From: Methanobrevibacter thaueri
Lineage (GTDB): Archaea > Methanobacteriota > Methanobacteria > Methanobacteriales > Methanobacteriaceae
Reading direction: 5' to 3'
Assembly: GCF_015062915.1 (NCBI RefSeq)
Contig: NZ_SUTJ01000003.1
Location: forward strand, 33,525 to 97,524
DNA: 64,000 bases
Below are positions 27,903-55,778 of the stretch, piece by piece (positions within the stretch are counted from its first letter, which is position 1; each line of letters begins with the position of its first letter). A program made the position numbers and the translations under genes. The notes under the pieces were generated by a model that saw only the letters and a list, made by a program, of their open reading frames with translations, was not told where the DNA came from and did no database searches.

Positions 27903-27906
27903 AGTA

Positions 27907-29109
27907 TCATACTTTTAAAAATCTGTATCCTGCTCTTGTCGAATCAATTGCATAAACTTCCATTTCAGGTATTATCACGCGCACAACGCTGACATCCACT
28001 TCAGGTCTTGTCAAATCAGTGTATAGGATATGCTTGATGTCATTTCTAACCAGTTCGTCCTTAACGATTTCAATATCCTTCAATATTGAAGTGGTGGACT
28101 TGTTCTCAATTTCTGATAAATCAATTTGATTTTCCTCTTGCTGGAAATAATATTTGTTGATTCTTTTCATCCTCTCATATCCGGCTTCACGAGCAAAATC
28201 GGCTCTTACAGTGTCTTCACGAGCACCATTGATTTGTGTTGCCCTGCTTTGAGCCACTTCTGTAAGTGCCCTTAGGATTGCAACTTCAGGGTCAAGGTGT
28301 GTTCCGATACCGAGTGTCAGCAGTCCGGCATCTCTTGTTACTGTATCATCTGCTGATGCGGCGATTGTTGGAATATTTATGTCTGCTGTAAAGTCCATCA
28401 GCTTGATTTTAATGCCCTGTGATTCGAATTTATCGATTATTTCATTGATAAGCTCGCTTTCGATACTGTCAATGTTGATTTGTGAATAGTTCTTATGGGT
28501 CAGCTCGAAGATGCTCCACGCATCTCTTTCAATAACCTCAAATATTCCATGCAATATTGCCTCTTCAAGAACATTTCCAGAGGCAAGACCGTTTGTGTTT
28601 GATTTGAAAAGGCTTTGAACATCATTACCATGATTGTAAGGGTGGAAAACCGCATTTGACAAAACGTAATAGTCATTGTCGGAAATTATGTCATGAGCCA
28701 GACTCCATTCGAATGCGGTGTCGCTTAAATCTTCCTTTTCAAATTTCTGAGGCAAGTTCAGGGATTTAGGTTCAATATAATCTCCTTTATCAGCTATTTC
28801 ATCAGGTGTTGCGACAATGGTATCGTCGCTTTTCTGCTTTTCAGCTGAATACCTTTCAAAACCTTCCATCATTGCGGAGGCCTTGGCATGTTCCTTGCTG
28901 ATACCCTTTCCTCCGTAGATGCTGATTGCCCCATCCTCTGCAGTTGGCCTAATGGCTGTAAAGACAGGCATTCCAATTCTATCCAAGTCTGTAATGTCAG
29001 CCACACGAGTTATTCCAACGCTTTTAAGCTTATCCTCATTGATTTCAATTGTTTTTTTAGGGGCGATTACCCTGTGAGTTCCTTTAAAATATGTGAGTTC
29101 TTCTGTCAT
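27907..29109 (-). CDS. ycaO: YcaO, McrA glycine thioamidation enzyme
   Basis: GITRVADITDLDRIG, MMEGFERYSAE, SNTNGLASGN, EVIERDA and RALTEVAQSR; no Pro-rich azoline-type C-terminus. Confidence 0.92.
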   Translation of the reverse strand: MTEELTYFKGTHRVIAPKKTIEINEDKLKSVGITRVADITDLDRIGMPVFTAIRPTAEDGAISIYGGKGISKEHAKASAMMEGFERYSAEKQKSDDTIVATPDEIADKGDYIEPKSLNLPQKFEKEDLSDTAFEWSLAHDIISDNDYYVLSNAVFHPYNHGNDVQSLFKSNTNGLASGNVLEEAILHGIFEVIERDAWSIFELTHKNYSQINIDSIESELINEIIDKFESQGIKIKLMDFTADINIPTIAASADDTVTRDAGLLTLGIGTHLDPEVAILRALTEVAQSRATQINGAREDTVRADFAREAGYERMKRINKYYFQQEENQIDLSEIENKSTTSILKDIEIVKDELVRNDIKHILYTDLTRPEVDVSVVRVIIPEMEVYAIDSTRAGYRFLKV

Positions 29110-30857: not shown

Positions 30858-31628
30858 ATGCCGGCAAATATTTTTAAAAGAGTTTGGGATTACAGTACGT
30901 ATAACATACCATTTCTCTTATTTGTATTTATACTGATATTGGCCTCAAACACAATTACGGATTTCTTCTTCAGGGAATTAGATAACACCATGGCCATGAT
31001 TATTCAATTCATGTTCAATATTGTATTGTGGGGTTATGGGATGCAGATAACCCGTGACAGGATTAATGGAGGCAAGAGATTGCCAAAACTGTTACCTAAA
31101 GTCATGCTGTCATTGGGAGTTAAGCTGGTCATTGTCTCTTCAGTTTATGTTTATGTTCAAGGGATAATTTTGGATTTCATATGCTCCCCTTTGAATTTCC
31201 AGACTTATGATTTGGAAGACATGCTATGGGATTTGCCCCATACCATTCATGAAATATATACTCATGACCCGGCAAGCCTTATAATTTTCTTTGTGGTCGG
31301 CACAATACTCTTTTACATCACAGCATTTTTCCTGGAAATTGCCATTGCCAAGCTGGCTGATACCGGCAGTATATTGGAAGCATTCAATCTCAAATCAATA
31401 TTCAGAAGCATTCATGCATGGGGATGGAAGAAGTATACGAAGGAATACACATTAATTCTCATTACAGTGACAATCCTATTTTATATTGGCATAATTCAAT
31501 TTGATATTCCTGTGATAGATTATGTTTTTGACACGTTTCTAATGTTTTTAATTTTTGTAACCCAATTCATGGGTATAGGTGCGGTATATGCCAAAATGAA
31601 AGCTGCCGAGGCTGAAAAATTAGAATGA
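30858..31628 (+). CDS. DUF4013-like membrane protein
   Basis: Multi-TM; LWGYGMQITRDRINGG...LP and AKLADTGSILEAFNL pattern. Confidence 0.7.
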   Translation: MPANIFKRVWDYSTYNIPFLLFVFILILASNTITDFFFRELDNTMAMIIQFMFNIVLWGYGMQITRDRINGGKRLPKLLPKVMLSLGVKLVIVSSVYVYVQGIILDFICSPLNFQTYDLEDMLWDLPHTIHEIYTHDPASLIIFFVVGTILFYITAFFLEIAIAKLADTGSILEAFNLKSIFRSIHAWGWKKYTKEYTLILITVTILFYIGIIQFDIPVIDYVFDTFLMFLIFVTQFMGIGAVYAKMKAAEAEKLE

Positions 31629-34832: not shown

Positions 34833-34975
34833 ACTGAAATGCACTATTTTCATTGAACTACCTCGACCTTGGATGAGGTCGGGGATTCTTACTTCACGGG
34901 CAGGTACTTTCCCACGAAAGTAGTTTTACCGTGCTATCCCCCCAGTTCCTGAGGTTCATTTTTGTTTTTTCTTGA
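34833..34975 (-). ncRNA. Predicted TnpB omega-RNA (reRNA) scaffold plus about 20-nt flank-derived guide
   Basis: Overlaps the tnpB 3' end. Contains GGAACTGGGGGGATAGC, a TACTTTC/GAAAGTA hairpin and the right-end hairpin, ending in TTCAA. 5' boundary is approximate. Confidence 0.65.
34861..34884 (-). other. IS right-end hairpin
   Basis: CCTCGACCT-TGGATG-AGGTCGGGG on the + strand. Confidence 0.8.
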
Positions 34976-36102
34976 AGAAGTCTGTATCCTTCTTGTTCTA
35001 TGTTTTTGGCGGCGTTTATGTCTCTGTCGTGTTGTGTTTGGCAGTGTGGACAGGTCCATCTTTTTTCTTCGCCTAAGTCTTTGTTGTAGTATCCGCATAC
35101 GTTACAATTTTTGCTGGATGGGTACCATTGGCTTATTTGGACGAATATTTTATCGTACCATTCGCATTTGTATTTTATCATTTCCACTAACTTGTACCAG
35201 CTGATATTCTGTAGTTTTTTGCTATAATCGGTTTCTTCGAATATTTTTTGTATGTCTAGTGTTTCCATACAGATTAGGTCGTATGTTTTGACTAGGTAGT
35301 TGCTTAATTTGTGGTATGCGTCTTTTATGCGGTTGTTTTTTCTTTGTATCCATTTGCCTAGTTTTTTTAGTGTTTTGTTGTAGCGGTTGCTGTTGTATTT
35401 TTTTCGTGATAGGCTTTTTTGGTATTTTTTAATCATTTTTTCCTCATGTGTCGTGTCTAAATTGGTTATCTTTAGTCCGTTGCTGAGGATTGCTAATGTT
35501 CTCATACCAAGATCAATTCCCACGCTCTTATAAGTATAATCCATTGTCTCTACTTCGGTTTCGATGTTGAAAACTGCATAAAAGTGACCGTGCTCCTTTT
35601 TAATGGTTACATTGTTTATTTTAGATTCTTTTAGTAATCTTTTATAATGGGTGCTGGTTCTGTAATGTACTTTTCCTAGTTTTGGTAAGACAATTGTATT
35701 GTCTTGTATTTTGATATTATTGTTGTTTTGTATTCTGAAACTTTGTTTTGGATTCTTTTTGGATTTGAATCTAGGATAATCGGATGTATTGTTGAAGAAT
35801 CTATTAAATGCAGTTATTAGGTCACGATAGACCTGTTGTAGGCTGCTTGACTCACTTTCATACAAGAAGGGATATTGTGTTTTCAACATGTTCAACATTG
35901 TATTGAATGTTTTCTGATTGCATTGTAACTTTGTGTATCCTTGTTGTTTAAACAATTCAAATGTTTCCTGATATTCTTCTAATAATTTATTCCAAGTTAA
36001 TCTGGCGTTATTAATATTCTGATTAATTTTATCCTTCATACTTTCATCAGGATACAATTTAACCACAATACCTTTATTAACCGTATTATACTCAGAAAAC
36101 AT
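34894..36102 (-). CDS. tnpB: RNA-guided endonuclease TnpB
   Basis: N-terminal KLYP HTH, PRFKSKK, RuvC-I GIDLG, RuvC-II METL, CNVC/CPHC zinc finger, RuvC-III DRDINAA. All three acidic residues are present. Confidence 0.95.
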   Translation of the reverse strand: MFSEYNTVNKGIVVKLYPDESMKDKINQNINNARLTWNKLLEEYQETFELFKQQGYTKLQCNQKTFNTMLNMLKTQYPFLYESESSSLQQVYRDLITAFNRFFNNTSDYPRFKSKKNPKQSFRIQNNNNIKIQDNTIVLPKLGKVHYRTSTHYKRLLKESKINNVTIKKEHGHFYAVFNIETEVETMDYTYKSVGIDLGMRTLAILSNGLKITNLDTTHEEKMIKKYQKSLSRKKYNSNRYNKTLKKLGKWIQRKNNRIKDAYHKLSNYLVKTYDLICMETLDIQKIFEETDYSKKLQNISWYKLVEMIKYKCEWYDKIFVQISQWYPSSKNCNVCGYYNKDLGEEKRWTCPHCQTQHDRDINAAKNIEQEGYRLLQEKTKMNLRNWGDSTVKLLSWESTCP

Positions 36103-36279: not shown

Positions 36280-36363
36280 TATTCTTGCACTATTAAGATA
36301 AAATATATTTATTCTAATGATAAATATTTATAATAATATATATTACATTTTAGGTGGGAATTT

Positions 36364-39300
36364 ATGCACAAGTTTAATTTATCGTCATCTCAGAAGATGT
36401 TGTTGTTTTCTGAGATAAACAATCCTAACAACGACTCGTTTTATCTCAAATTCAGAAAAGATTATGATTTGAAGAATTTTGATAAGGTGAAACAGGCAAT
36501 TGAAAGTATTTCTAGAAATCATTTAAACTTAAAAATTAAATATGATGAAAAGGGGGATTTCAAGCAATATTACGATGATTTTGATGTAAATGTGGAATCA
36601 TTTGAAGTTGCTGATGAAAATTTGGACCAATTCATTGTCGATTACTTGGATGAACCTTTTGATGATGTTTTCGATTCTCCATTGTATAAGTGGGCAGTAT
36701 TGAAAACAGAATCATCAGCTGTTCTTATAGGTGTTGTACAGCATATCCTATTGGATGGTACTTCCTTATTTTCATTAATTCCTCAGGAGATTGAAAAATA
36801 CCTCCGTGATGGGGATTATGTTTCAGATGAGTATTCTTACGAAACATATGTTAATGATGAAATGGAGTATTTAAAGTCCCCTGAAGCCAGTGAGGATAAA
36901 AAATATTGGTTGAACATTTTAAAAGATTATTCTCAGGATTGGTATTCATTCGACAATTCTGAACTTGGTTATTATGAAGTGCTTTTGGATCAAATCCCTA
37001 ACTTCAAGTATTCCCCATTTGTCACTGCACTTGCACTTGAGTTTTTATATTTTGCAAAATCCAAAAAGAGCAACAAATTGTTTAAGGACATTGTGATGAA
37101 CACTTCCGTCCATGGAAGATACTTCGGACAAGGCGACGCTCTTGGAATGTTTGTAAATACAATTCCATTAAGGCTGACCTATGATGAGGATTTAACCTTT
37201 GATGAGTTGATGGTATATTCAAAATCAGTTTTAAAAGAGGGATTGGCACATGCTAAATTGCAGTTCAGTGAATACGCAACCGATTTGAGAAACGTAAACA
37301 TTGACCCGGACTGCATTTCAATGTTTTCCATAGTGTCCAATTCCACAGACTATGATTCAAAATTCCTGACTTTGCAAAAGGACATCAAGTTCCCATTGCA
37401 CTTCAGGATAAATAAGAACTATTCAGATAAAAACGGCCTGCAATCCATATTTGTGGAATATGACAAATCCTGTTTCAGCCATCGTGAAATTGAATCAATT
37501 GCAAATGGTTTAAGGGATTTGCTAAGGCAGATAATGGATGATTCCTCCAAAAAATGTAAGGATTACACTGTTGAAGTGGTTGATTTCTTCAATGCCGAAA
37601 ACTACTACAACAACATGATGAATTCATTTGACAATCCGACAGCAATCTCTCCAGATATGAGTGGAGACAATGTAATATTCTCTGAACTTTCCAAACCTAT
37701 AGATGATGATAAATTAAAGAACTTGTCAAAACAATATAATCTGTCTAAGGAAAGAATGCTGTTGTCTGTGTTCATGTTTAACTTGACAAAATTCTCATTT
37801 TCAAAAGATATTCTTGTTGCCTACAATAAACAGGCTTGTGGATATCATTTCAACACAGATTTATCTGTTATTGAATACTTGGAGGACTTTAAAAAGTATT
37901 TCAAGTATTATTCAAATTATCCTTTGTTAAACAATAAAAAACTCAATTTTGAAAGTGAAATATTGTTTTTCACTGATGAATACGATGCCAAGGACTATAA
38001 ATTCGTATTTAATTATGAAAGTGGAAAAATCAACATCAGCTATGATGAGTCATTCTATTCAAAAGAACTAATTGAAACATTTCTGGAATCAATGGAAGTC
38101 TTATTGGATAGATTCGAATCAGGCGATAATTTATTGAAAGATATCTCCATAAGAAGACAACTTGAATATGATGAGGACTTCAAGATTGAACTTGCAAATG
38201 AAGGTGTTGTAAACAAGGTCTTTGACATGGCTGTAGCTCAAAACCCTCAAAAAACAATACTCATTGCAGAGGATGGGGAAGTAACATATGGGGAATTGGA
38301 TAAAAAAGCCAATAGGATAGCTAATGCATTAATCAAAAGAGGAGTGAACATTGAAGATAGGGTAATGTTCATGATGAGAAGAAACAGTGACCTGATAGCT
38401 GCAGTTTTAGGTATTGTCAAGGCAGGAGCCGCTTTTATTCCAATTGACCCTAAATATCCTAAAAACAGAATCAATCAAATTCTGGATGACAGTGATTCCA
38501 AATTCGTCATAACAAGTTCAGAAATAGGTTATGATGGAGAAAACAGAATAGATATTGATGATTTGCTTGATGAAATTGATGATTCAAATCCTGAAATCGA
38601 GTTAACGCCGGATAACTTGTGTTTCATGATTTATACTTCAGGTTCAACCGGAAAACCTAAGGGAGTGATGATTACTCATAGGGGTATCACAAATTATGTT
38701 GCAAATGTTGAGGAGAATGTTCCGATTTATGAGCTGAACCATAAGTGTAACAAGTTCATTTCAATTTCAACAGTTTCTTTCATTGTATTTTTGAGAGAAG
38801 TGTTTGGTACAATACTCAATGGATTGCCAGTGGTGTTTGCAAACGATGAAGAATCAATAGATCCATTGAAATTGGTTGAATTGTTCAAAAAAACCGGAGC
38901 TCAAGGATTTGGCTCCACACCAACAAGACTGCTCGAATACATTCAGCTTGAAGAGATTCAGGATGTTGTTAAGGATTGCACTGTGATAATTGTCGGCGGT
39001 GAAGGATTCCCTCCTATATTATATGAAAGGCTGTCAAAATACACTGATGCAGACATCTACAACTCTTACGGCCCAACAGAGGTCACCATTGCATCACACT
39101 ACAAGCTGATTGACTCATCTCAAGTCACCGCAGGATGGAAGATGCTCAATGTGGTTGATAAGATAATGGATATCGATGGAAATCAACTTCCTCCATATGT
39201 CATGGGCGAAATCTATGTTGGTGGTGCAGGAATTGCAAGAGGATATCTGAATAATGAGGAGCAAACCCAAAAGGTCTTTTTAACACTTAATGACATTCCA

Positions 39301-42300
39301 TATTACAATACTGGAGATTTGGGTAAAAAAGATGCTAACGGCGAGCTATATGTTCATGGGAGAAATGATACTCAAATCAAGCTTAGGGGCTTAAGAATCG
39401 AATTGTCTGAAATTGAAGGGGCAATTGCCAATTATGATGGCATTTCCCTTTCAAAGGTCGTTGTCAAAAAAGTCAATTCAGTGGAGCATTTATGCGCCTA
39501 CTTTACAGCCGTAACCGATATAGATATTGATGATTTAAAGCAACATTTAGTTGATTCAATTCCTGAGTATATGGTTCCATCTTATTTCACACAACTTGAC
39601 GAGTTTCCAAAAACTCCAAATGGCAAGACAGACTTTAAAAACTTGCCTGACCCTGAAATTGATGTTGATGATTTTATTAAACCAAGAAATGAGATTGAAC
39701 AGGAGTTATTCAATATTGTATCCGAGCTCTTGAACATTGAGGAATTTGGTGTAAACACTGATTTATTCAGCATAGGATTGACTTCATTGTCTGTAATCAA
39801 ACTGACATCTGCAATTTACAATAACTTGAATGCACAGTTAAACGTTACTGAAATACTTAATTATAAGACAATTGAAAGAATCGCTTCTGAAATTAAGATA
39901 GATGATGCATCATCAAGTGATGTGCAGGAATTATATCCTTTAACCTCAAATCAACTTGGAGTTTACTTTGACTGCATTAAAGATCCTGAAAACACTGCAT
40001 ATAACCTTCCAAAGAAAATGGAATTTAGTGAAGGCATTGATGCAGATAAACTCAAATTATCAATTATTGAATCCATTGAAAATCATCCATATTTAAAAAC
40101 AAGAATTGTAATGGAAAACGGTGAAGTTTACCAACAAAGAAGGGATAACCTGAAAGTTGATGATTTAATAGAAATGGTTGATGATGCTAATGTGGACGAG
40201 TTTGTAAAGCCGTTCAAGCTTGATGAGGGGCCATTGTTCCGCTTCAAGATAGTTGGAAATTCAATGTTGCTTGCTGATTTCCACCACATTATCGTTGATG
40301 GAACTTCATTAAACATTCTATTTGATGAGATAGCTAAAATCTATGATGGAAAGGATTATGAGATTGAGGAGATTGATGGATTTGAATATTCATTGAATGA
40401 AAAGAAAACAGAACAATCCAGCTTGTATGAAGAGGCTAAACTATTTTTCTCCAATAAGGTCAAGGAATTTGATGATGCCACATTGATTCCGCAGGACATC
40501 AATGGTGATGAGTCTGAGGGTAGTGCCGCAATGGATGATATCTTCTTGGGTAAGGAATCCATAGATGAGTTCTGCGCAAAATCCGGCATATCCCAAAACA
40601 ACTTGTTCCTGGCTGCGACCTCATTCGTCATAAACAAGTTTGTTTATAATCGTGAAATATTGATTGCAACAATCACTAACGGCAGATTCAATCCAAACCA
40701 GCAAAAGACATTGGCAATGATGGTTAAGACATTGCCTTTATCATTGAAATTGAATTCAGATTCAAACATTAAGGAATACCTTGACTACATTAACGGCGAG
40801 TGGTTAAACGTATTGGGTTACTCATCATATCCTCTAACAGAAATCTCAAACGAGTTCGACATCACTCCTGAGATATTGTACGCATACCACGGCAAAATCA
40901 TTGAGGATATTGAAATCGGAGGAATGAATGTCGAAAGGCAGTCAATAGATTATGAAGGATTGAAATTCAAGATAAATATTAATGTTGTCGATGTCGGAGA
41001 CCAATATAGGATTTTCTGCGAATACAATGACCAATTATACTCTAAAACTTTAATTGACACATTCCTTAACTGTATTAGGATTGTCCTGAATAAATTCCAA
41101 AGTTTCGATGAAAAAACATTGATGAAGGATATTTCAATAATCGAAAATGATGACTGGGGAGTTGACGATTTAGAGTATGATGAAATTCCAGAGGAAAGAT
41201 TAAACAAGATATTTGAAAATCAGGTGGAAATGCATCCTGACAGGGTTGTCTTATATGCCACCGACGGGGAATTCACATATGAGCAATTGAATGAAAAGGC
41301 CAATAGGATTGCACATGGCCTTATCAAAAGGGGTGTAGGTCCTGAGGACAGGATAATGTTTATTCTTAATAGGGACAGTAACACAATAGCATCAATTTTC
41401 GGTATCCTGAAATCAGGTGCTGCATTTATTCCAGTGGACTCAGAATATCCTTCTGAAAGAATTGAGCATGTATTGACAGACAGTGAGTCAAAATACATAA
41501 TTGTGGATGATGTAATTGAGAAAAAATCCATAGATCTGTCCCAATATGAGGATAACTTATTGGATGTCCATGAACTTCTAAAAGAGGAAGACACTTCAAA
41601 CCCCGACCCTGACGTTCATGCCAATAACATGGCTTATCTCATCTACACTTCAGGTTCCACAGGACTTCCAAAAGGAGTAATTCTTGAACATGGAAACATT
41701 GCAAACTTCGTTTATCCTGACCCTAGAAATGTATGTACCTATGAACTGGTGCATAATCTTGAAAAAGAGGATTATAAGGTATTGTCCACTACAACAGTTG
41801 CTTTCGATGTGTTCCAGCAGGAGATTATGGGATCCCTATTGAACGGGGTGCCGATGGTATTTGCCAATGACACTGAATACAAGGACCCAATCGAAATGAT
41901 GAGTCTGATTCACAGGACAGGCGCTAATGTCTACATTGCAACCCCATCACGTTTGCTGCAATATCTGGAAATCGAAGCGATGCAGGAGACAATGTACGGA
42001 TTCAAGGTATACATTCACGCTGGAGAACCATTCTCAGCCAGATTATATGAATTGCTTTCACAAAACTCCAATGGAAAACTATTCAACATGTACGGGCCAA
42101 CAGAGACTACAGTCTACTGTAACGGTCAGCTGCTTGAAAGTTCAGACATTCACATTGGAAAAGAGCTTTTCAACGTACATGAAATGGTTATGGATTTCGA
42201 TTCAAACCCATTGCCTCCAAATGTCATTGGGGAAATGTACATTGCAGGAAAGGGTGTTTCAAGAGAGTACCTGAACCGTCCTGAGAAAAATGAGGAGTCA

Positions 42301-44169
42301 TATGAAATAATTAATGGAATCCGATTCTATCACTCAGGGGACTTTGTTAAAGTCACTGAAGATGGGAATTATTATGTGTTCGGAAGAATGGATAACCAAA
42401 TCAAGCTTAGAGGCTTAAGGATTGAAATAGGTGAGATTGAAGTTGGTCTTTCAAACTTCCCTGGAATCAAATCCGTTGCGGTTGTCGTTAAAAAGATTAA
42501 GGGCAATGATCACTTATGTGCATATTTCACTGTTCATGATGATTACAAGGATGAAAACCGTGAGGAAAATGGATATTCAATTGATATTGATGAGTTAAAG
42601 GCTTCACTTGCTGAAAAATTGGTATATTACATGGTTCCAACAGTCTACATGGAACTTGATGAAATGCCGCAAACCGTAAATGGCAAAACAGACTTGAGGA
42701 ACTTGCCTGAACCGGTTCTAATCACTGAATATGTTGCTCCTGAAAATGAAATTGAAGCATTCTTTGCAAATCTCTTTGCAGAAATTTTAGGACTTGATGA
42801 GGTAAGCGCCACCGATAACTTCTTTGAAATTGGTGGAACTTCACTTCTAGTTACTAAAATTACCATGGAAGCTATAAACAGAAATTATAACCTGAATTAT
42901 GGGGACGTATTCTCAAATCCAACTCCAAGGGCATTGTCAGACTTTATCCTATCTGATGAGTCATTGGAGAAGAAATCAGAAATGGCTTATGACTATTCAC
43001 AAATCAACAGCCTGCTTGAGAAAAACAATCTTGAAACAATCATTAATGGTGAAATCCAAGACAGTGTAGGTAATGTGCTGTTGACTGGTGCCACAGGATT
43101 TTTAGGAATACATGTATTGCGTGAATTACTTGAAAATGAGGATGGTGAAATTTACTGTTTCATCAGATCCAATAAGGTTCTAAGCGGTGCTGAAAGATTG
43201 AAATCACTTCTCTTCTATTATTTCTCAGATGAGTACAACGAGGCATTTGATGAAAGGCTGCACATTATCGAGGGAGACATCACAAACTTTGAGGACTTTG
43301 AAAAGCTTGTGCATGAAAAAATAGATACTGTCTTCAACTGTGCCGCCAACGTAAAACACTTCTCATCAGGAACAGATATTGAAGATATCAACCTTGGGGG
43401 TGTAGTCAATGGACTCAAGTTTGCTAAAATGAAGAATGCGAAATATGTTCAGATTTCAACCTACAGTATTGCAGGTGAAAGTATTGACAATTATCCTCCG
43501 GTTGACGTTAAATTTACGGAAAATGATCTATTCATTGGTCAGGCAGTGGATAACCAATATCTAAACAGTAAATTCCTTGCGGAACGTGCCGTTTTGGAAG
43601 CTGCCGTTAATGATGATTTGGATGTTAAAATCATGCGTGTAGGTAACCTGATGGCCAGAAGTTCAGACAGTGAATTCCAAATCAACTTCGTAACAAACGG
43701 TTTCATCAATCGTCTTAAGGCGTTCGTGACAATAGGTAAAATGCCATATTCCATGCTTATGAATCCTGTTGAATTCTCACCGATTGACATTACAGCTAAG
43801 GCCATTGTGGGATTGTCCAAGACTCCTAAGGAATGCACCATTTTCCATCCATATGATTATCACAATATCAGCTTCGGAGACATAATTGATATAATTAGGC
43901 CGTTAGGATTGACAATTGATCCTGCTGAAGATGATGATTATCAAAAAGCATTGGATGAGGCTCTTGCAGACAAAACAAAACAAGAGGGAGTTTCCGGTTT
44001 AATCACTTCTATTGGTTCGGGTAAGGTTAAAAAGATATGGCTTCCTGTAGACAATTCATACACAATCCAGGCATTATATCGTTTGGGAATTACCTGGCCA
44101 TTCCTTTCAGAGGAATACGTTTATAATTTTGTAAAATATTTGGATGAACTTGATTTCTTTAGTGTTTAG
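36364..44169 (+). CDS. Non-ribosomal peptide synthetase, C-(half C)-A-T-C-A-T-R
   Basis: C1 QHILLDG (36739), A1 YTSGSTGKPKG, T1 GLTSL (Ser 39784), C2 HHIIVDG (40282), A2 YTSGSTGLPKG, T2 GGTSL (Ser 42841), reductase TGATGFLG (43084) with YLNSK. Confidence 0.95.
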   Translation: MHKFNLSSSQKMLLFSEINNPNNDSFYLKFRKDYDLKNFDKVKQAIESISRNHLNLKIKYDEKGDFKQYYDDFDVNVESFEVADENLDQFIVDYLDEPFDDVFDSPLYKWAVLKTESSAVLIGVVQHILLDGTSLFSLIPQEIEKYLRDGDYVSDEYSYETYVNDEMEYLKSPEASEDKKYWLNILKDYSQDWYSFDNSELGYYEVLLDQIPNFKYSPFVTALALEFLYFAKSKKSNKLFKDIVMNTSVHGRYFGQGDALGMFVNTIPLRLTYDEDLTFDELMVYSKSVLKEGLAHAKLQFSEYATDLRNVNIDPDCISMFSIVSNSTDYDSKFLTLQKDIKFPLHFRINKNYSDKNGLQSIFVEYDKSCFSHREIESIANGLRDLLRQIMDDSSKKCKDYTVEVVDFFNAENYYNNMMNSFDNPTAISPDMSGDNVIFSELSKPIDDDKLKNLSKQYNLSKERMLLSVFMFNLTKFSFSKDILVAYNKQACGYHFNTDLSVIEYLEDFKKYFKYYSNYPLLNNKKLNFESEILFFTDEYDAKDYKFVFNYESGKINISYDESFYSKELIETFLESMEVLLDRFESGDNLLKDISIRRQLEYDEDFKIELANEGVVNKVFDMAVAQNPQKTILIAEDGEVTYGELDKKANRIANALIKRGVNIEDRVMFMMRRNSDLIAAVLGIVKAGAAFIPIDPKYPKNRINQILDDSDSKFVITSSEIGYDGENRIDIDDLLDEIDDSNPEIELTPDNLCFMIYTSGSTGKPKGVMITHRGITNYVANVEENVPIYELNHKCNKFISISTVSFIVFLREVFGTILNGLPVVFANDEESIDPLKLVELFKKTGAQGFGSTPTRLLEYIQLEEIQDVVKDCTVIIVGGEGFPPILYERLSKYTDADIYNSYGPTEVTIASHYKLIDSSQVTAGWKMLNVVDKIMDIDGNQLPPYVMGEIYVGGAGIARGYLNNEEQTQKVFLTLNDIPYYNTGDLGKKDANGELYVHGRNDTQIKLRGLRIELSEIEGAIANYDGISLSKVVVKKVNSVEHLCAYFTAVTDIDIDDLKQHLVDSIPEYMVPSYFTQLDEFPKTPNGKTDFKNLPDPEIDVDDFIKPRNEIEQELFNIVSELLNIEEFGVNTDLFSIGLTSLSVIKLTSAIYNNLNAQLNVTEILNYKTIERIASEIKIDDASSSDVQELYPLTSNQLGVYFDCIKDPENTAYNLPKKMEFSEGIDADKLKLSIIESIENHPYLKTRIVMENGEVYQQRRDNLKVDDLIEMVDDANVDEFVKPFKLDEGPLFRFKIVGNSMLLADFHHIIVDGTSLNILFDEIAKIYDGKDYEIEEIDGFEYSLNEKKTEQSSLYEEAKLFFSNKVKEFDDATLIPQDINGDESEGSAAMDDIFLGKESIDEFCAKSGISQNNLFLAATSFVINKFVYNREILIATITNGRFNPNQQKTLAMMVKTLPLSLKLNSDSNIKEYLDYINGEWLNVLGYSSYPLTEISNEFDITPEILYAYHGKIIEDIEIGGMNVERQSIDYEGLKFKININVVDVGDQYRIFCEYNDQLYSKTLIDTFLNCIRIVLNKFQSFDEKTLMKDISIIENDDWGVDDLEYDEIPEERLNKIFENQVEMHPDRVVLYATDGEFTYEQLNEKANRIAHGLIKRGVGPEDRIMFILNRDSNTIASIFGILKSGAAFIPVDSEYPSERIEHVLTDSESKYIIVDDVIEKKSIDLSQYEDNLLDVHELLKEEDTSNPDPDVHANNMAYLIYTSGSTGLPKGVILEHGNIANFVYPDPRNVCTYELVHNLEKEDYKVLSTTTVAFDVFQQEIMGSLLNGVPMVFANDTEYKDPIEMMSLIHRTGANVYIATPSRLLQYLEIEAMQETMYGFKVYIHAGEPFSARLYELLSQNSNGKLFNMYGPTETTVYCNGQLLESSDIHIGKELFNVHEMVMDFDSNPLPPNVIGEMYIAGKGVSREYLNRPEKNEESYEIINGIRFYHSGDFVKVTEDGNYYVFGRMDNQIKLRGLRIEIGEIEVGLSNFPGIKSVAVVVKKIKGNDHLCAYFTVHDDYKDENREENGYSIDIDELKASLAEKLVYYMVPTVYMELDEMPQTVNGKTDLRNLPEPVLITEYVAPENEIEAFFANLFAEILGLDEVSATDNFFEIGGTSLLVTKITMEAINRNYNLNYGDVFSNPTPRALSDFILSDESLEKKSEMAYDYSQINSLLEKNNLETIINGEIQDSVGNVLLTGATGFLGIHVLRELLENEDGEIYCFIRSNKVLSGAERLKSLLFYYFSDEYNEAFDERLHIIEGDITNFEDFEKLVHEKIDTVFNCAANVKHFSSGTDIEDINLGGVVNGLKFAKMKNAKYVQISTYSIAGESIDNYPPVDVKFTENDLFIGQAVDNQYLNSKFLAERAVLEAAVNDDLDVKIMRVGNLMARSSDSEFQINFVTNGFINRLKAFVTIGKMPYSMLMNPVEFSPIDITAKAIVGLSKTPKECTIFHPYDYHNISFGDIIDIIRPLGLTIDPAEDDDYQKALDEALADKTKQEGVSGLITSIGSGKVKKIWLPVDNSYTIQALYRLGITWPFLSEEYVYNFVKYLDELDFFSV

Positions 44170-44180
44170 GGGGTAAAACA

Positions 44181-45908
44181 ATGCATGAACGTAATTATGA
44201 GTTATTGAGAAGTAAGTTTACTGAGTTTTTCCTGCCTACATTGTTCACTTCCATGGCAGGAAACATCTGTCTTTTTGTAGATGGATTGATTGTGAGTTTC
44301 TTGCTGGGTGCAGCAAACCTTTCGGCTATTCAGATTGTTGCTCCTTTAATCACCTTTGTCAATCTCATTTACTGGATGATCGGATTGGGGGGCAGTGTTC
44401 TCTGCTCTGTTGCAAAGGCCGAATTCGATGATGAAAAGAGCAATAGCTACTTTTCGGTGGCAATTATATCTCTTATAACCCTAGGCATAGTGATAGCAGT
44501 TGTAGGTCTTATATTTTCAGGCCCAATTGCCCAGTTGTTATGTGCTTCACAGCCTGAATTGATTCCGGATGTCACTAGCTATTTCATTTTATTGGTTATT
44601 GGAATGCCATTTTTATGTTATATGATGAGCTTATCATACTTCATAAGGGCCGATGGAATTCCTACACTGCCATTCAGGGCGATATTGTTGGCTAATATTA
44701 TTAACATAGTCTTTGATATCATATATCTCCAATTATTTAATATGGGAATAGGAGGAGCAGCATTGTCTACCTCAACAGGGTACTTAACAGGTTCAATATT
44801 AATTTCATTTTACTTCTACAAGTCCGAACGAACACTACAATTTATAAAATTGAAAGTGACTTCATTTCTGTCTTATCTTAGGCAGATTGTCACTTCTGGA
44901 TTCTCATCCTCATCAACCCAATTATACTTGACATTAAAGCTATTGATTATAAACTCATTGATTGGAATATATGTTGGAAACGCAGGTCTTGTAGCATTTG
45001 GTATTTGCTATAACAGTCTGTTCATATTGTACATCTTTTTAATCGGGACAGCTCAGACAATGTCTCCAATCGTGTCAGTTTACTATAAGGAAGAGGATTA
45101 TTCCGGAGTGAATTACATTATTCGCAGGTCGTTGAAAATAGTCTTTGCTTCAAGTCTTGCATTGGCGGTTTTATTCATAGTCTATCCTCAATCATTGTTG
45201 ATGCTGTACAGTGTCAAGGACCCGTCTTATGTTCTTGTTGTCTTAAACGCAGTAAGGATATTTGCAATAAGCTATGTTGGAACTGCAATAACATTCCTAT
45301 ACACTTTCTATTCTCAAGCGATACAGAAAAATCAATTGTCAACAATCATTTCATTGCTTGAGGGATTAATATTTCCGATTGGATTTGCAACAGTATTGTC
45401 CTTTGTGTTTGGAGGAAATGGAATTTGGATTTCATTTGCATTGGCTGAACTCTTTACAATACTTTTCATATTTGCATATTCAAGGCACTTAAGCAGGAAA
45501 ACCGATGGGGAGTACACCGGATTTTTCATCAACAAGCACAATGACGACACAAAGGTATTTGAGTATACCATAAGAGGCAATATTGACGAGGCTGTGGAAT
45601 TATCACAAGAAGTTCAAAATTATCTAGAAGGAAACAAATCCGCAACGGTGGTCAGCATGGCCATTGAGGAAATGCTTGTAAATATCATCAACACCAATGA
45701 TGAGGTCGGCACAATTGATGTTATCGTCAGAAACAATGAGGACAATATTCTGATTTCAGTCAAGGATACAGGAATCGATTTCAATCCTGTTGTTGAAAAT
45801 GAGAATTTGGAATTTGACAACATAAGTGTCTTAAATAAAATTGCGGATAAAATCGATTATTCCAGAGTTTTGGGATTGAACAGCACTGTAATCACAATTA
45901 AAAATTAA
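44181..45908 (+). CDS. MATE efflux transporter fused to a C-terminal RsbW-like (HATPase_c) domain
   Basis: About 12 TM MATE body (VDGLIVSFLLG, GIGGAALST). Tail EEMLVNII...VKDTGIDFNP. Starts 11 nt after the NRPS stop. Confidence 0.88.
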   Translation: MHERNYELLRSKFTEFFLPTLFTSMAGNICLFVDGLIVSFLLGAANLSAIQIVAPLITFVNLIYWMIGLGGSVLCSVAKAEFDDEKSNSYFSVAIISLITLGIVIAVVGLIFSGPIAQLLCASQPELIPDVTSYFILLVIGMPFLCYMMSLSYFIRADGIPTLPFRAILLANIINIVFDIIYLQLFNMGIGGAALSTSTGYLTGSILISFYFYKSERTLQFIKLKVTSFLSYLRQIVTSGFSSSSTQLYLTLKLLIINSLIGIYVGNAGLVAFGICYNSLFILYIFLIGTAQTMSPIVSVYYKEEDYSGVNYIIRRSLKIVFASSLALAVLFIVYPQSLLMLYSVKDPSYVLVVLNAVRIFAISYVGTAITFLYTFYSQAIQKNQLSTIISLLEGLIFPIGFATVLSFVFGGNGIWISFALAELFTILFIFAYSRHLSRKTDGEYTGFFINKHNDDTKVFEYTIRGNIDEAVELSQEVQNYLEGNKSATVVSMAIEEMLVNIINTNDEVGTIDVIVRNNEDNILISVKDTGIDFNPVVENENLEFDNISVLNKIADKIDYSRVLGLNSTVITIKN

Positions 45909-46010
45909 GTGATATTTAAGGATGATGTTAACACATTATCCAATTCTTTTTTTTCGATTAAATTAATTATTTATATTTTCATTAACATAATTTTCATTGA
46001 GTTAATTAAC

Positions 46011-46868
46011 ATGTCTGGTCAAAAATCATTTATTGCGAAAATAGAGGAAAGCATTTTAAAGGCAACCAAACCAAAATATATGGACTTTTCAGATGAGGTA
46101 AGTCACTTTTTATCCGATAGGCAAAATGATCCTAAGCCTCCAAGTGGCCTTTTCAAGAGTTTTGATTTCAATGGTATGGAAGTCTTCAAAATAGGTGATG
46201 AAACTTGCAAAAACACAATACTGTATCTACATGGGGGAGCATACGTTAATGAAATAAATTATCAGCATCTATTATATTGCTTTTTGCTTTCACGAAAATT
46301 AGATGTCCAAGTGTTGTTGCCAGTTTACCCACTCGCTCCTTTACATAAAGCGAAGGAAACTTTTGACCTGCTTCGAGAATTTTATGAAACCCTAACCTCA
46401 AGGGATAATTTGATACTTATGGGCGATTCCGCAGGAGGAGGACTTGTTTTTTCATTCTGTCAGTATCTCAATACAATCGGTCTGGCGCAACCCGACAAGA
46501 TCATAACATTTTCCCCATGGATTGACATTTCAATGAGCAACGGGCCGTATGACAATGAAAACGACCCGATTTTAGGTGAAATCGGCCTGAGGGAAATCGG
46601 GAAATCATGGGCAGGTGACTGGGATAGCAAAGACTATCGCGTAAGCGCCACATATGGAGATAACAGCGGATTGCCGAGAACCCTTATTTTTGCCGGAACA
46701 AATGAGATATTCTACAAGGACATCAAGATGTATGTTGAAAAGCTAAAAAGAGATGATGTTGATGTCAAGTTCATAGAAGGCGATGGACTATTCCATATCT
46801 ATCCGTTGTTCCCGATGCCTGAGGCAAAAAGCGCATTTAAAGAAATAAAAAAAGAAATAATTAAATGA
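46011..46868 (+). CDS. HSL-family alpha/beta hydrolase (esterase)
   Basis: YLHGGAY oxyanion motif, GDSAGG, NEIF and LFHIYP. Start moved to ATG 46011. Confidence 0.88.
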   Translation: MSGQKSFIAKIEESILKATKPKYMDFSDEVSHFLSDRQNDPKPPSGLFKSFDFNGMEVFKIGDETCKNTILYLHGGAYVNEINYQHLLYCFLLSRKLDVQVLLPVYPLAPLHKAKETFDLLREFYETLTSRDNLILMGDSAGGGLVFSFCQYLNTIGLAQPDKIITFSPWIDISMSNGPYDNENDPILGEIGLREIGKSWAGDWDSKDYRVSATYGDNSGLPRTLIFAGTNEIFYKDIKMYVEKLKRDDVDVKFIEGDGLFHIYPLFPMPEAKSAFKEIKKEIIK

Positions 46869-50446: not shown

Positions 50447-51157
50447 ATGGAATTAACAGAAATCATGTCAGATGCTTTACTGTATCCATTTCAGAATATT
50501 AAAGCATTAGTACTTTATCTTATTTTGGGAATAATTTTAGGAATCTCCATTGCGGGACTCGTTGTGGCCTTGGCTGCCAGTTATGCTGCTGAAAATGTTT
50601 TGGCTATTCTAGGTACTGGAGTTTTAGGAGTAATCATCGCTCTTATCCTTTCATTCATCATATCAGGTTATCAATTGGATATTGTTAAATTTGGTATAAA
50701 TAGGGATCCGGGTGCACCTGGAATTGATATTATCAGACAATTCGTTAATGGATTTAAATTGTTTATTGTTCAAATTGTTTATTATCTTATTCCAATCATT
50801 ATCGGAGCTATTCTCGCAATTTTCTTCCAAAATTGGCTATCCAGCATCATAAACTTCATTATTGCTATTATCTTTGGATTAGCAGCAATCATGGGTCAAT
50901 GCAGATTAGCTAAAAGTGAAGATATGGCTCATGCATTAGCAATTGGTGATGCTATCGGCGATATTTCCAGAGTGGGTATCGTTAAACTCTTAGTATTCAT
51001 TATTCTCATGATGATTATTGCAGTGATTTTAGCAACAATTATGATTTTCGTTGCTAGATGGAACAATATCATTGGCGGAATACTAATTGGTATTTTAGGG
51101 GTTTACTTCTCATTCTTTGTAAGTAGAGCTACTGGTTTATTATACTCTAATGTATAA
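50447..51157 (+). CDS. DUF4013-like membrane protein
   Basis: DALLYP start, ISGYQLDIVK...PG and multi-TM profile; GGTGA RBS. Confidence 0.72.
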   Translation: MELTEIMSDALLYPFQNIKALVLYLILGIILGISIAGLVVALAASYAAENVLAILGTGVLGVIIALILSFIISGYQLDIVKFGINRDPGAPGIDIIRQFVNGFKLFIVQIVYYLIPIIIGAILAIFFQNWLSSIINFIIAIIFGLAAIMGQCRLAKSEDMAHALAIGDAIGDISRVGIVKLLVFIILMMIIAVILATIMIFVARWNNIIGGILIGILGVYFSFFVSRATGLLYSNV

Positions 51158-51180: not shown

Positions 51181-51813
51181 TTAAAACAAGTCTTCAATAT
51201 TATATTCAACCGCTTTTTTGACATTATGCTTGGAGCAAGCTGCCAATTTATAGTTTTCAACATCAAATAAGCTGAATTTCAGATTATTTTCATTGCCTTT
51301 TAATGTGATTTCATCCCCGATCAGTATTTCAAACTGATCCAGTTCCAGATTGAATCCCAAACCAGTGTATTTCATATAGCTTTCCTTTAAAACCCAATAT
51401 CTAAAAAATTCGTTTGAAGGATTGTGGGATTTCATAATGCTTTCATATTCTGAGTTGAAGAAGTAGTGTTTGGCTATGTCCAAATCGATTTCCCCATCAA
51501 CATATTCAACATCAACGCCGACTTCCATATCGGATATTGCACAAGCTACCATTTTACGTGAATGGCTCAAATTGAAATGAATGTCTTCATGGCTTGATAT
51601 GTATGCCTTGCCGTATTTTCCGGTTTCGAAAGTGGGGTTTGTGATGTTTTCCTCTCTAAGCAAGGTATTCAAAAGAAGATATGCTCCGGCGCTCAGTTTC
51701 TTGTCCTTTTCGAACCTATAAAAATCCACTTTTGATTTTCTATGTTCCGGGAGCAATTCGTATGACCTTGTCAAATCCAAATCGTCGACATTGCAGTAAG
51801 CTATTTTAATCAT
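51181..51813 (-). CDS. Sfp-type 4'-phosphopantetheinyl transferase
   Basis: YGKAY, FNLSHS, VGVDVE and FFRYWVLKESYMKYTGLG. Confidence 0.93.
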   Translation of the reverse strand: MIKIAYCNVDDLDLTRSYELLPEHRKSKVDFYRFEKDKKLSAGAYLLLNTLLREENITNPTFETGKYGKAYISSHEDIHFNLSHSRKMVACAISDMEVGVDVEYVDGEIDLDIAKHYFFNSEYESIMKSHNPSNEFFRYWVLKESYMKYTGLGFNLELDQFEILIGDEITLKGNENNLKFSLFDVENYKLAACSKHNVKKAVEYNIEDLF

Positions 51814-51846
51814 TTTTTAATCTTCAATGTTAAAATTAGGTATTGT

Positions 51847-52224
51847 TTATTCCACTTTCTTGGTGATCTTGAGATGGTTTTCGTCGGCAATCCTATCATA
51901 TTCAATATCATCTGAAAGCTCTTTTGTCAGATGAATTCCCAAACCGCCTACCTCAGCATCTTCAATGCTTTCCGGCATTTTAGGGTCTTCATTTAAAAGA
52001 GGATTGAATTCAACTCCATCATCAATAAACTCAAGTGTCAATATGGAGTTTTCAAAACTAGAGTTGACCCTGATTGAATCGGTCTTTGAATAGTTGACAA
52101 TGTTTACAAAGACCTCTTCCAGAATCAGATCAACCTGAAAATCCTGTTTTCCAATAATTTCATTGATGAAATCATTCAATTTGTATAATTCCTCAATTTG
52201 AGGAGCCAATTCCAATGAATTCAT
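51847..52224 (-). CDS. RsbW/SpoIIAB-like anti-sigma-factor Ser kinase (HATPase_c)
   Basis: N-box EEVFVNIVNY, G1 DDGVEFNP, G2 GGLGI; ATGA overlap with the STAS gene. Confidence 0.88.
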   Translation of the reverse strand: MNSLELAPQIEELYKLNDFINEIIGKQDFQVDLILEEVFVNIVNYSKTDSIRVNSSFENSILTLEFIDDGVEFNPLLNEDPKMPESIEDAEVGGLGIHLTKELSDDIEYDRIADENHLKITKKVE

Positions 52225-52520
52225 TCTATCTTTAATATTTTATCAAATCCAGACATCCTGAAAATTTCATTAATGGTTTCGTTCACGTTTTTGATAACCA
52301 TTGGGGTGTCTGTGGATTTTAATTTTTTCTGGGTTGCTATCAGCACTCTCAAACCGGCACTGGAAATGTATTCCACTTTCTCAAAATCAATTACTAATGA
52401 GTCAAATTTTCCAAGCTCTTCATTAATTTCCTTTTCCAAGTCCTGTGAAGTCAAGGTATCAATTCTACCCTCTACTGATAATGTTAAATCCTTGTTATCA
52501 TAATCTTTTAAAATATTCAT
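52221..52520 (-). CDS. STAS-domain anti-sigma-factor antagonist (RsbV/SpoIIAA-like)
   Basis: VEGRIDT, IDFEKVEYISSAGLRVL with the phospho-acceptor Ser, and FRMSGF. Confidence 0.92.
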   Translation of the reverse strand: MNILKDYDNKDLTLSVEGRIDTLTSQDLEKEINEELGKFDSLVIDFEKVEYISSAGLRVLIATQKKLKSTDTPMVIKNVNETINEIFRMSGFDKILKIE

Positions 52521-52652: not shown

Positions 52653-53696
52653 TTATCTCATGTATAAAATAAACTTACCGAATTTAGGGATTCTATAAAT
52701 GATTGCGGCCGCCACATAACTGAAGAAAATCAGTAAAACCCATAAAATCAGAGCCTTGACAGGTTCTGTGAATGGCAATCCAACAATCAAAGGTAATAAT
52801 GGGAGTCTGAATAGGTTATGTATTAAAAATACTGCAAATGAGTATTTTGACAATACTTGGACTCCACTATAGAATCTGACGCTTCCTCTTCTGGAACACA
52901 GTTCGAACAGTGCGAATGATCCTGTCAGGATGAATGGGAACTCATACCATAGGAAGAAATTGTATCCTCTGATGAATGCATAGTACTGGAAGACTACACA
53001 AATTAAAAATGACACGAGTGCAAGCAATCTGAATTTATTGGTTGAATACTTCTTGAAAACTCCTTTCTTGACCAAGTATCCCAGTATAATGTAAATTCCA
53101 TATACTCCTCCACTGAATCCTAAACTGAATTGGATTGAAATGCCTTTAATCCCCTGCATGTCAAACAGTAATGTGATGAATGGAATCGCAAATGCCAAAA
53201 GTGAAAATACGATTGTGGCCTGATTGATTGTTTCCGGTTTGAAATTATCCAATGCGCTTGCAACAAACGGCATGGAAAGATACATTCCAATAATCATCGG
53301 CATATACCACATGTGGCTGAAGAATAGGTTTCCAGCTTCGGTAAAGTTGACGGACTGGCTTCCAACAGCAACAAACTGCAGGCTAACTGCATAAATCACG
53401 GTCCAAAGGATAGTGACTATAATCAGTCCCTTACAGTTTTTGCTCCAGAACTTGCGGACACGCTCGTCATTATAGCTTCTGTCAAGTAACAGATAACCTG
53501 TAATCATTAAAAAGAACGGAACCCCAATACGTCCAATAAACAGTGAAATGAATTGAAAAACTCTTGAAAATAATGTATAGTGCATTATTGCATCAGATGA
53601 TATTATATAAATACCATCTGTTGCATGAATGTACAGTACTGTCAGGATAGCTATTGCACGTACAAGATCAATCCATTCGACTCTATTTTTACTCAT
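52653..53696 (-). CDS. Acyltransferase-3 family membrane O-acyltransferase
   Basis: RVEWIDLVRAIAILTVLYIH, GVPFFLMITGY, HMWYM and YSFAVFLIH; about 10 TMs. Confidence 0.88.
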   Translation of the reverse strand: MSKNRVEWIDLVRAIAILTVLYIHATDGIYIISSDAIMHYTLFSRVFQFISLFIGRIGVPFFLMITGYLLLDRSYNDERVRKFWSKNCKGLIIVTILWTVIYAVSLQFVAVGSQSVNFTEAGNLFFSHMWYMPMIIGMYLSMPFVASALDNFKPETINQATIVFSLLAFAIPFITLLFDMQGIKGISIQFSLGFSGGVYGIYIILGYLVKKGVFKKYSTNKFRLLALVSFLICVVFQYYAFIRGYNFFLWYEFPFILTGSFALFELCSRRGSVRFYSGVQVLSKYSFAVFLIHNLFRLPLLPLIVGLPFTEPVKALILWVLLIFFSYVAAAIIYRIPKFGKFILYMR

Positions 53697-55728: not shown

Positions 55729-55778
55729 ATGACAATATTTATAATTTTTAATATAAAATATTAATTAAAGGTGATAAA

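Follow-up and report, generated by a model that had tools for sequence, protein, structure and literature searches.

The 64-kb stretch of Methanobrevibacter thaueri DNA analyzed here (contig NZ_SUTJ01000003.1, positions 33,525 to 97,524; hereafter the window, numbered from its first letter) carries a forward-strand gene, 36364..44169, for a two-module nonribosomal peptide synthetase (NRPS) of 2601 aa ending in a thioester reductase. Methanobrevibacter species are the main methane producers of ruminants, and the NRPS genes that they carry, on record since 2010, have no assigned product or function. The locus is not of a new kind but a new member of this known family, and what our analysis adds is a near-invariant Ile235/Arg239 code in the first adenylation domain, a remnant of a condensation domain in front of it, a variable terminal module and evidence of transcription in situ. 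On balance, and with confidence only slightly above even, we read the window NRPS as a functional ortholog of mru_0068 and sm9_0755, lying in a locus rearranged by insertion sequences (IS) and making a capped peptide aldehyde by the route proposed below.

Domain organization and adenylation codes

The open reading frame, which starts with ATG, coincides exactly with the one singled out in a preliminary description of this DNA, and is preceded by an AT-rich, promoter-like region (36300..36363, forward strand) in which direct reading of the sequence locates a ribosome-binding site, AGGTGGG, 6 nt before the start codon. Pfam models detect a Condensation domain, two AMP-binding domains with AMP-binding_C, two PP-binding domains and a terminal NAD_binding_4/Epimerase reductase. 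The complete layout is C1 - C-lobe remnant - A1 - T1 - C2 - A2 - T2 - R, where C, A, T and R denote condensation, adenylation, carrier and reductase domains. The C-A-T-C-A-T-R order of the preliminary description is borne out by Pfam and motifs, except that it had missed the remnant between C1 and A1.

C1 (aa 4-402; 36373..37569) is a full condensation domain, aligning in phmmer with C2 positions 11-411, and its motif at aa 126, QHILLDG, keeps the catalytic second His while the first is replaced by Gln; the (Q/H)HxxxDG pattern is kept in 84 of 91 full-length orthologs. The segment that follows (aa ~410-600; 37591..38163) aligns with C2 positions 177-256 and 368-439 only, and is thus the C-terminal lobe of a second condensation domain, without HHxxxDG. 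It is orthologous throughout the family, forms the N-terminus of 2190-aa variants that lack C1, and is probably a structural platform on which A1 sits. A1 (aa 620-1090; 38221..39633) is followed by T1 (aa 1114-1175; 39703..39888), with its serine in IGLTSL (GLTSL at about aa 1141), and by C2 (aa 1187-1620; 39922..41223), with a complete HHIIVDG motif at aa 1307. A2 (aa ~1638-2120; 41275..42723) precedes T2 (aa ~2135-2200; 42766..42963), with its serine in IGGTSL (GGTSL at about aa 2160), and the protein ends in the reductase (aa 2238-2601; 43075..44166), a match to NAD_binding_4 with intact SDR-type TGxxGxxG and YxxxK motifs (TGATGFLG at aa 2241, YLNSK at aa 2399). Core motifs A5, A7, A8 and A10 are present in both adenylation domains, as is A3 by direct reading, and both carrier serines are conserved in orthologs. 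The catalytic residues reported as intact in the preliminary description (carrier Ser, C-domain His, reductase YxxxK) are indeed so, with the qualification that in C1 this holds for the second His only.

Specificity codes were read at ten positions (235-517) by MAFFT and HMM (hidden Markov model) alignment to GrsA-PheA; as a check on the numbering, the GrsA reference sequence itself yielded its known code, DAWTIAAICK, where expected. The A1 code is IVRGIGSIAK, with Asp235 replaced by Ile and with Arg at position 239, and its A4 motif reads SFIVFLRE against SFDASVWE in GrsA. Asp235 of adenylation domains binds the alpha-amino group of the substrate. It is kept in 849 of the 896 adenylation domains that we sampled from 150 diverse NRPS representatives, and Ile235 is confined in that sample to the family of the window NRPS, where the first adenylation domain reads IVRG[IV]GS[IV]AK in 119 of the 120 closest homologs. 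Outside this family, Arg239 is in the sample nearly confined to D[AP]R[HSG] codes (12 of 14 such codes), which belong to acidic amino acids activated through the side-chain carboxyl, as with beta-methylaspartate and D-Glu in microcystin or aminoadipate in ACV synthetase; in these domains Arg239 holds the free alpha-carboxylate. The rest of the A1 pocket keeps Ile299 and Ile330 as in PheA, with small residues otherwise (278, 301, 322, 331).

A related domain, I-A-R-S-T-G-S-[IV]-A-K, is found in homologs P0095 and P0179 in an internal module behind an intact C domain (HHIIFDG), a placement that requires the substrate to present an amine or hydroxyl as acceptor. Taken together, these features suggest, without proving, that the first building block, instead of being a standard alpha-amino acid, is an acid bearing a carboxylate and a distal nucleophile; possible alternatives are an aminobenzoate and an aromatic alpha-hydroxy acid. 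The preliminary description, in which A1 was not considered, proposed a product of acyl-X-prolinal or prolinol type; Ile235 and Arg239 make a normal alpha-amino acid unlikely as X. A full-text literature search with the A1 and A2 code strings and six reference codes returned no match.

For A2, both alignments reproduced the code DVQIIAMVYK, with Asp235 in place, and the A4 motif FDVFQQEI that had earlier been read by eye. The canonical proline code (Stachelhaus 1999) is DVQ[LFY]IAHVVK. A2 agrees with the form DVQFIAHVVK, seen four times in an 817-code sample, at 7 of 10 positions, the mismatches being at 278, 322 (His to Met) and 331 (Val to Tyr). The claimed closeness to proline domains stands to that extent, but the match is suggestive only, the nearest of the 817 codes being DVWSIAMVYK (8/10), whose tail resembles Thr-type codes. 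Gln239 and the hydrophobic walls of the pocket are compatible with a small cyclic or aliphatic residue, and we give activation of proline or a proline analog about an even chance.

The last adenylation domain is also the variable part of the family. Among the same 120 homologs it reads DVQ[IV][IL]AMVYK in 92, and about a dozen forms occur overall, including the acidic-rich DVDD[YF]GSITK and DTEDIGSVAK, the lysine-containing DAIGKGSVQK and several hydrophobic-looking codes; in a three-module relative, P0021, the A2-type module is present twice. A constant first unit combined with a variable last unit is a pattern that would fit capped peptide aldehydes aimed at different proteases.

The position of C1, N-terminal in the first module, is that of lipo-initiation starter C domains. 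Its similarity, in a sequence-only and weak test, is greater to elongation C domains (LgrA, E 1e-9; TycC, 2.8e-7) than to solved starters (SrfAA, 3.5e-4; RzmA, 7.7e-4), which leaves the "acyl" start of the preliminary description unproven. With C1 alone as query, nothing came up beyond fragments, a single copy with a frameshift (L038) and a stand-alone protein of C1 plus remnant, and there was no clue to the acyl donor; the 64-kb window has neither a second NRPS nor a free-standing A-T protein nor an MbtH gene. The stand-alone protein (P0307; L039 10001-11986, L040 3017-5002) has 661 aa (47% identity) and occurs on 7 contigs with no adjacent NRPS.

At the other end of the synthetase, T2-R aligns end to end with the PCP-R of Mru_0351 (6VTJ; E 1.4e-102), and the next match is the reductase of AusA (E 1.8e-49). 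Similarity to alcohol-forming domains is far lower (MxaA, 2e-16; mycobacterial Nrp, 2e-6). This ranking, close to Mru_0351 and to the aldehyde-releasing AusA and far from MxaA and the mycobacterial enzyme, makes an aldehyde the more likely outcome, and the released product would most likely bear a C-terminal aldehyde.

Public contigs with the identical NRPS protein number 37; RUG11987 ranks first among species representatives at 95% identity, and 2605/2606-aa proteins of M. millerae type or from Methanobrevibacter sp. are 83-84% identical. All close homologs come from Methanobrevibacter, in rumen and gut assemblies, and the neighbors of the NRPS in the window include YcaO-TfuA, carbamoyl-phosphate synthetase, pyruvate kinase and other housekeeping genes; methanogen genes and homologs alike argue for an archaeal host and, with the Pfam domains, uphold the earlier assignment as an archaeal NRPS with terminal reductase. 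As judged from homology, with mru_0068 itself compared through its published description, the window NRPS is an ortholog of the mru_0068/sm9_0755 family. The former, in M. ruminantium M1, was described in 2010 as a two-module NRPS that opens with a C domain, ends in a reductase and adjoins a MatE gene, accompanied by a phosphopantetheinyl transferase, an acyltransferase, a serine phosphatase, an anti-sigma antagonist and a kinase (PMC2812497); the latter, in M. millerae SM9, followed in 2016 as a 2605-aa protein 81% identical to mru_0068, with transposases on its borders (PMC4987999). A rumen survey counted 687 NRPS clusters in 125 archaeal genomes and, among 85 near-complete Euryarchaeota genomes examined more closely, found them in Methanobrevibacter only (PMC8241843). 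The earlier statement that the family has no identified product agrees with the literature: products of Methanobrevibacter NRPSs were still unreported in 2021 (PMC8024701), and archaeal nonribosomal peptides were listed as unexplored in late 2024 (bioRxiv 10.1101/2024.10.07.616454).

The layout of the window NRPS is shared by 91 of the 120 closest homologs; 14 lack C1 and start at the remnant, nine have three modules, one has four, and five are two-module proteins truncated at one end. The 2190-aa versions without C1 at L041 (15598-24573) and L042 (14944-23919) have A codes identical to those of the window, and in place of MatE they are followed by a pair each of RimK-type ATP-grasp ligases, GH3 amido synthetases and ABC exporters and by a second STAS gene. 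The C1-less variant P0102, again with both A codes of the window NRPS, likewise has two ATP-grasp ligases of RimK type and two GH3 acyl-amido synthetases downstream, and ABC exporters where MatE would be; ATP-grasp and GH3 enzymes join carboxylates to amines, which is in keeping with a carboxylate-bearing first unit.

A search of diverse representatives with the remnant and A1 returned mostly giant multi-module NRPSs at the top ranks, and Ile235 codes only in P0157, P0207 and P0179. The contigs of P0157, P0179 and P0272 (a cluster-mate of P0207) carry an NRPS-MatE cluster of the window type, and the neighbors of P0157 are methanogen-like; no bacterial donor lineage was identified in this search. 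Two bacterial loci from a genome scan (L032, L033) proved to be unrelated split NRPS-like genes.

Selection, transcription and gene neighborhood

Pairwise comparison with 15 orthologs gave ratios of nonsynonymous to synonymous substitution rates (dN/dS) of 0.06-0.15 for C1, 0.05-0.23 for the remnant, 0.03-0.10 for A1, 0.02-0.04 for A2 and 0.02-0.06 for R, with the lowest dN of all NRPS domains in A2. Purifying selection thus acts on all domains, C1 and the remnant included.

Assembled metatranscriptomes of the ruminant gut, drawn from several studies, contain nearly identical sequence. In rRNA-depleted and other runs from at least three studies, coverage selectively marks the NRPS and the MATE exporter gene behind it, at a depth of 3-12 against about 0-1.6 on the flanks. 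The rRNA-depleted run X15 has contigs over 36356-45895 at a word depth of ~10-12, with the adjacent pyruvate kinase and esterase genes at ~1, and two sheep-gut runs show 3-8 for NRPS-MATE against 0-1.6. One X15 contig (43404-45895) bridges the two genes, and another (51502-52494) covers the phosphopantetheinyl transferase, RsbW-like and STAS genes at depth 11. Metatranscriptome contigs begin at 36356 (X15) and 36367 (X29), positions that we infer to mark the transcript start. The unevenness of coverage from gene to gene argues for RNA and not DNA. Fourteen fecal runs labeled as metatranscriptomic (X1-X14) contain the complete gene, but on single ~12-kb contigs spanning genes of both strands at flat, DNA-like depth, and these runs were not counted as RNA evidence. 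The NRPS gene is transcribed in the ruminant gut, and a silent gene, an outcome for which the preliminary description had allowed, is at odds with the selective coverage. The esterase and acyltransferase genes described below have low depth in the RNA runs. The highest regional RNA depth (36-47 in X15, 16-25 in X18) falls on the second of two paralogous DUF4013 membrane-protein genes (30858-31628 and 50447-51157).

Eleven nucleotides after the NRPS stop codon begins a gene for a 575-aa MATE exporter (44181..45908, forward strand; Pfam MatE), and each of the 29 related loci long enough to show it has a MatE gene directly downstream of the NRPS. It is followed by an HSL-type esterase gene (45909..46868, forward strand; HGGAY and GDSAGG motifs), whose real start is probably the ATG at 46011. 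A block of reverse-strand genes lies further downstream, comprising an Sfp-type 4'-phosphopantetheinyl transferase (PPTase; 51181..51813; Pfam ACPS and AASDHPPT_N, best NCBIfam model AusB), a 125-aa RsbW-like HATPase_c_2 protein (51847..52224), a 99-aa STAS-domain protein resembling anti-sigma antagonists (52221..52520) and, as an accessory gene, an integral-membrane acyltransferase of the Acyl_transf_3 family (52653..53696).

Many relatives share the order PPTase(-), SpoIIE phosphatase(-), RsbW-like(-), STAS(-), NRPS(+), MatE(+), often continued by the esterase and Acyl_transf_3. In about 14 related loci the PPTase gene is found upstream of the NRPS at a distance of ~2.6 kb, the RsbW-like gene adjoins the NRPS in L002, L037 and L041, the STAS gene accompanies it in relatives, and the acyltransferase is found with the cluster in some of them. 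The esterase follows the MATE gene in 7 related loci, and Acyl_transf_3 adjoins the esterase in 6. A pairing of the esterase-acyltransferase type has been noted for mru0512 (PMC2812497). The window retains the esterase behind MatE, and its PPTase/RsbW/STAS/acyltransferase block is displaced 7 kb downstream. The PPTase and exporter that the preliminary description had pointed out nearby are confirmed by Pfam, and synteny in relatives marks them as genuine cluster partners.

On the 5' side the NRPS abuts a reverse-strand TnpB gene of IS200/IS605 type (34894..36102), which we take as a boundary and not as a biosynthetic gene. Several runs show it at a depth exceeding that of its flanks 5- to 15-fold, with many variant positions, and the excess depth indicates that the element is multi-copy. 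In two metatranscriptomes, contigs join position 55763 back to 49435 with a 15-nt filler, and no terminal repeats were found; the junction probably reflects a strain with another order, or a tandem copy, of a 6.3-kb block carrying the PPTase genes.

The C-terminus of the MATE protein (45531-45905) extends ~125 aa beyond ordinary MATE pumps and is RsbW/HATPase-like, being 27% identical to the RsbW-like protein of the cluster (pairwise E 9e-6) with sub-threshold HATPase_c_2 hits. MatE proteins of 580-586 aa also follow the NRPS in L034-L037. These similarities suggest that the STAS/RsbW partner-switching proteins might gate export through the RsbW-like domain of the pump. Archaea are without sigma factors. 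The set that travels with this archaeal NRPS (51847-52520 in the window; L002 7363-9916) is nonetheless a bacterial-style partner-switching set, formed by STAS and RsbW-like proteins and, in relatives, a membrane SpoIIE phosphatase.

An aldehyde dehydrogenase gene (55779-57191) was rejected as a member of the cluster, being syntenic in the closest relative only and unlinked to the NRPS elsewhere. Two tandem TMEM175-like potassium-channel genes (54591-55728, reverse strand) are each of single-repeat, half-size form. The YcaO-TfuA pair (27246-29109, reverse strand), of a kind associated with thioglycine formation in methyl-coenzyme M reductase, adjoins an M50 peptidase-like gene.

Proposed pathway and competing explanations

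In the pathway that we favor, the Sfp-type PPTase, whose gene is present, would prime T1 and T2. A1 would adenylate and load a building block outside the standard alpha-amino acids, as domain order and homology imply; Arg239 and the small residues at 278, 301, 322 and 331 point to a carboxylate-bearing or otherwise polar acid, and the I-A-R-S domains of the variants to a substrate that probably has an acylatable amine or hydroxyl. A2 would load proline or a proline-like small hydrophobic residue, and C2 would join the A1 and A2 units. C1 would probably acylate the first unit from a donor supplied in trans, the remnant probably serving only as the A1 platform. Using NAD(P)H, the reductase would then detach the product from T2 by reduction, most likely leaving an aldehyde at its C-terminus, for export by the co-transcribed MATE pump, over which the STAS/RsbW-like module probably has control, to judge from the pump's own RsbW-like domain.

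A broader version, tentative and on balance doubtful, would have the near-invariant first module, always preceded by the remnant, install a carboxylate-bearing, non-alpha-amino "cap" shared by an entire Methanobacteriaceae family of peptide aldehydes, with the variable last residue tuning them to proteases and the pump exporting them under RsbW gating. The cap may be a side-chain-linked acidic amino acid or a hydroxy-diacid.

Several points weigh against the capped-aldehyde pathway. Specificity codes are heuristics, and no characterized counterpart of the A1 code was found in the literature. The proline match of A2 is weak, and C1, with QH instead of HH and little likeness to solved starters, may have a different role or be inactive. 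Release as aldehyde or as alcohol is not readable from sequence (PMC8024701), and products, substrates and activities are inferred from sequence for the family as a whole. The depth of Logan contigs is a poor measure of expression, being strandless and open to DNA carry-over. Finally, no SpoIIE phosphatase gene lies in the 64-kb window, though it completes the regulatory module in relatives.

The first competing explanation takes the preliminary description literally, as an N-acyl dipeptide aldehyde synthetase of the gut-Clostridia type in which a starter C domain would join a fatty or short acyl-CoA to an ordinary alpha-amino acid X, followed by proline, to give an acyl-X-prolinal. The C-A-T-C-A-T-R order with terminal reductase, the Pro-like A2 code and the best family models, AusA and AusB, all speak for it, and N-acylation by the leading C domain was also suggested by Leahy et al. 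(PMC2812497). The Pro-like A2 and the reductase survive from that proposal, but X as an ordinary residue conflicts with Ile235/Arg239 in A1, and the acyl start with a C1 that scores better against LgrA than against starters. Nor does family membership hold, since the NRPS reaches 1051 bits where the AusA equivalog cut-off is 2500 and the PPTase 82.6 where that of AusB is 225. Methanogens, moreover, are not known to have a conventional fatty-acyl-CoA/ACP pool (ACP, acyl carrier protein). We consider this product unlikely.

A second possibility, which we likewise regard as unlikely, is a four-electron reduction to an alcohol with a prolinol-type end, possibly O-acylated and de-acylated by the Acyl_transf_3 protein and the HSL-type esterase. 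Both genes are in the window and co-occur with NRPS-MATE in several species, and sequence does not tell how far the reduction goes (PMC8024701); yet the reductase is nearer to that of AusA than to the alcohol-forming domains, the esterase/acyltransferase pair is missing from many related loci, and the two genes have low RNA depth.

A pyrrolobenzodiazepine-like or aryl-amine route, in which A1 would activate an aminobenzoate-type acid and A2 proline, with the aldehyde cyclizing onto the aryl amine if there is no C1 or C1 leaves that amine free, appears improbable to us. Adenylation domains for aryl acids and aminobenzoates typically lack Asp235, the A1 pocket keeps Ile299 and Ile330 of GrsA among small residues, an aryl amine could be the acceptor in the internal I-A-R-S modules, and the 2190-aa variants have exactly the A-T-C-A(Pro-like)-T-R order of pyrrolobenzodiazepine synthetases. 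NpsA is a detectable homolog (E 3.2e-38), but it ranks far below ordinary amino-acid adenylation domains; acidic-pocket codes among the forms of the last module suit such a scaffold poorly, genes for the supply of anthranilate, para-aminobenzoate or alkyl-proline precursors are absent from the 64-kb window, and Arg239 is left without explanation.

A horizontally acquired relic, silent or productless, would account for the abutting TnpB element, the rearranged cluster with SpoIIE missing from the window, and fragmented copies elsewhere (L038), but is highly improbable given the intact motifs, dN/dS of 0.02-0.23 in all domains, selective NRPS-MATE coverage in several metatranscriptomes and the identical protein on 37 contigs.

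The A1 code offers biochemistry a concrete entry point. If the broader reading with a shared cap is right, the building block and the adenylation code that selects it would not yet have been described. Should the products act as protease-directed aldehydes or as signals, they would be the first nonribosomal peptides known from archaea, and they could bear on interactions between methanogens, bacteria and host and on targets for methane mitigation.

Comparison with known systems

The pyrrolobenzodiazepine synthetases NpsA/ThdA/NpsB (tilimycin) and TomA/TomB combine a non-alpha-amino starter, a proline-type second unit and a terminal reductase. Their order is the one found in the C1-less variants of the window family; the window NRPS itself differs from these synthetases in its leading C domain and in the variable last module of its family, and its similarity to NpsA, at about rank 55 in the homology search, is low.

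The NRPSs of gut Clostridia reported by Guo et al. in 2017 are said to have an A-T-C-A-T-R core and to release dipeptide aldehydes reductively. The earlier assignment of the window NRPS to this type is sustained by the architecture, but not by its AusA score or by Ile235 in A1. AusA/AusB of Staphylococcus aureus, which makes the pyrazinone aureusimine, has the same core and gives the best NCBIfam models for both the NRPS and the PPTase. The window NRPS differs in its additional N-terminal C domain, the C-lobe remnant, the archaeal host and an A1 without Asp235; with that residue missing, the free alpha-amine that drives pyrazinone formation would probably be missing too.

Nearer relatives are found within the genus. 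Mru_0351 (6VTJ, PMC8024701) shares the TGATGFLG and Y..SK motifs and the end-to-end alignment of T2-R, but is a four-module enzyme. Closest of all are mru_0068 and sm9_0755, which match the window NRPS in length (~2600 aa), in having two C-A-T modules and a reductase, and in the MatE gene directly downstream; PPTase, acyltransferase, anti-sigma antagonist and kinase-like genes also recur, as do transposases at the borders. The window departs from them in its rearranged gene order, with the PPTase/RsbW/STAS/acyltransferase block 7 kb downstream and no SpoIIE gene in the window, and in two features absent from the published descriptions of both (PMC2812497, PMC4987999), the C-lobe remnant and the unusual A1 code.

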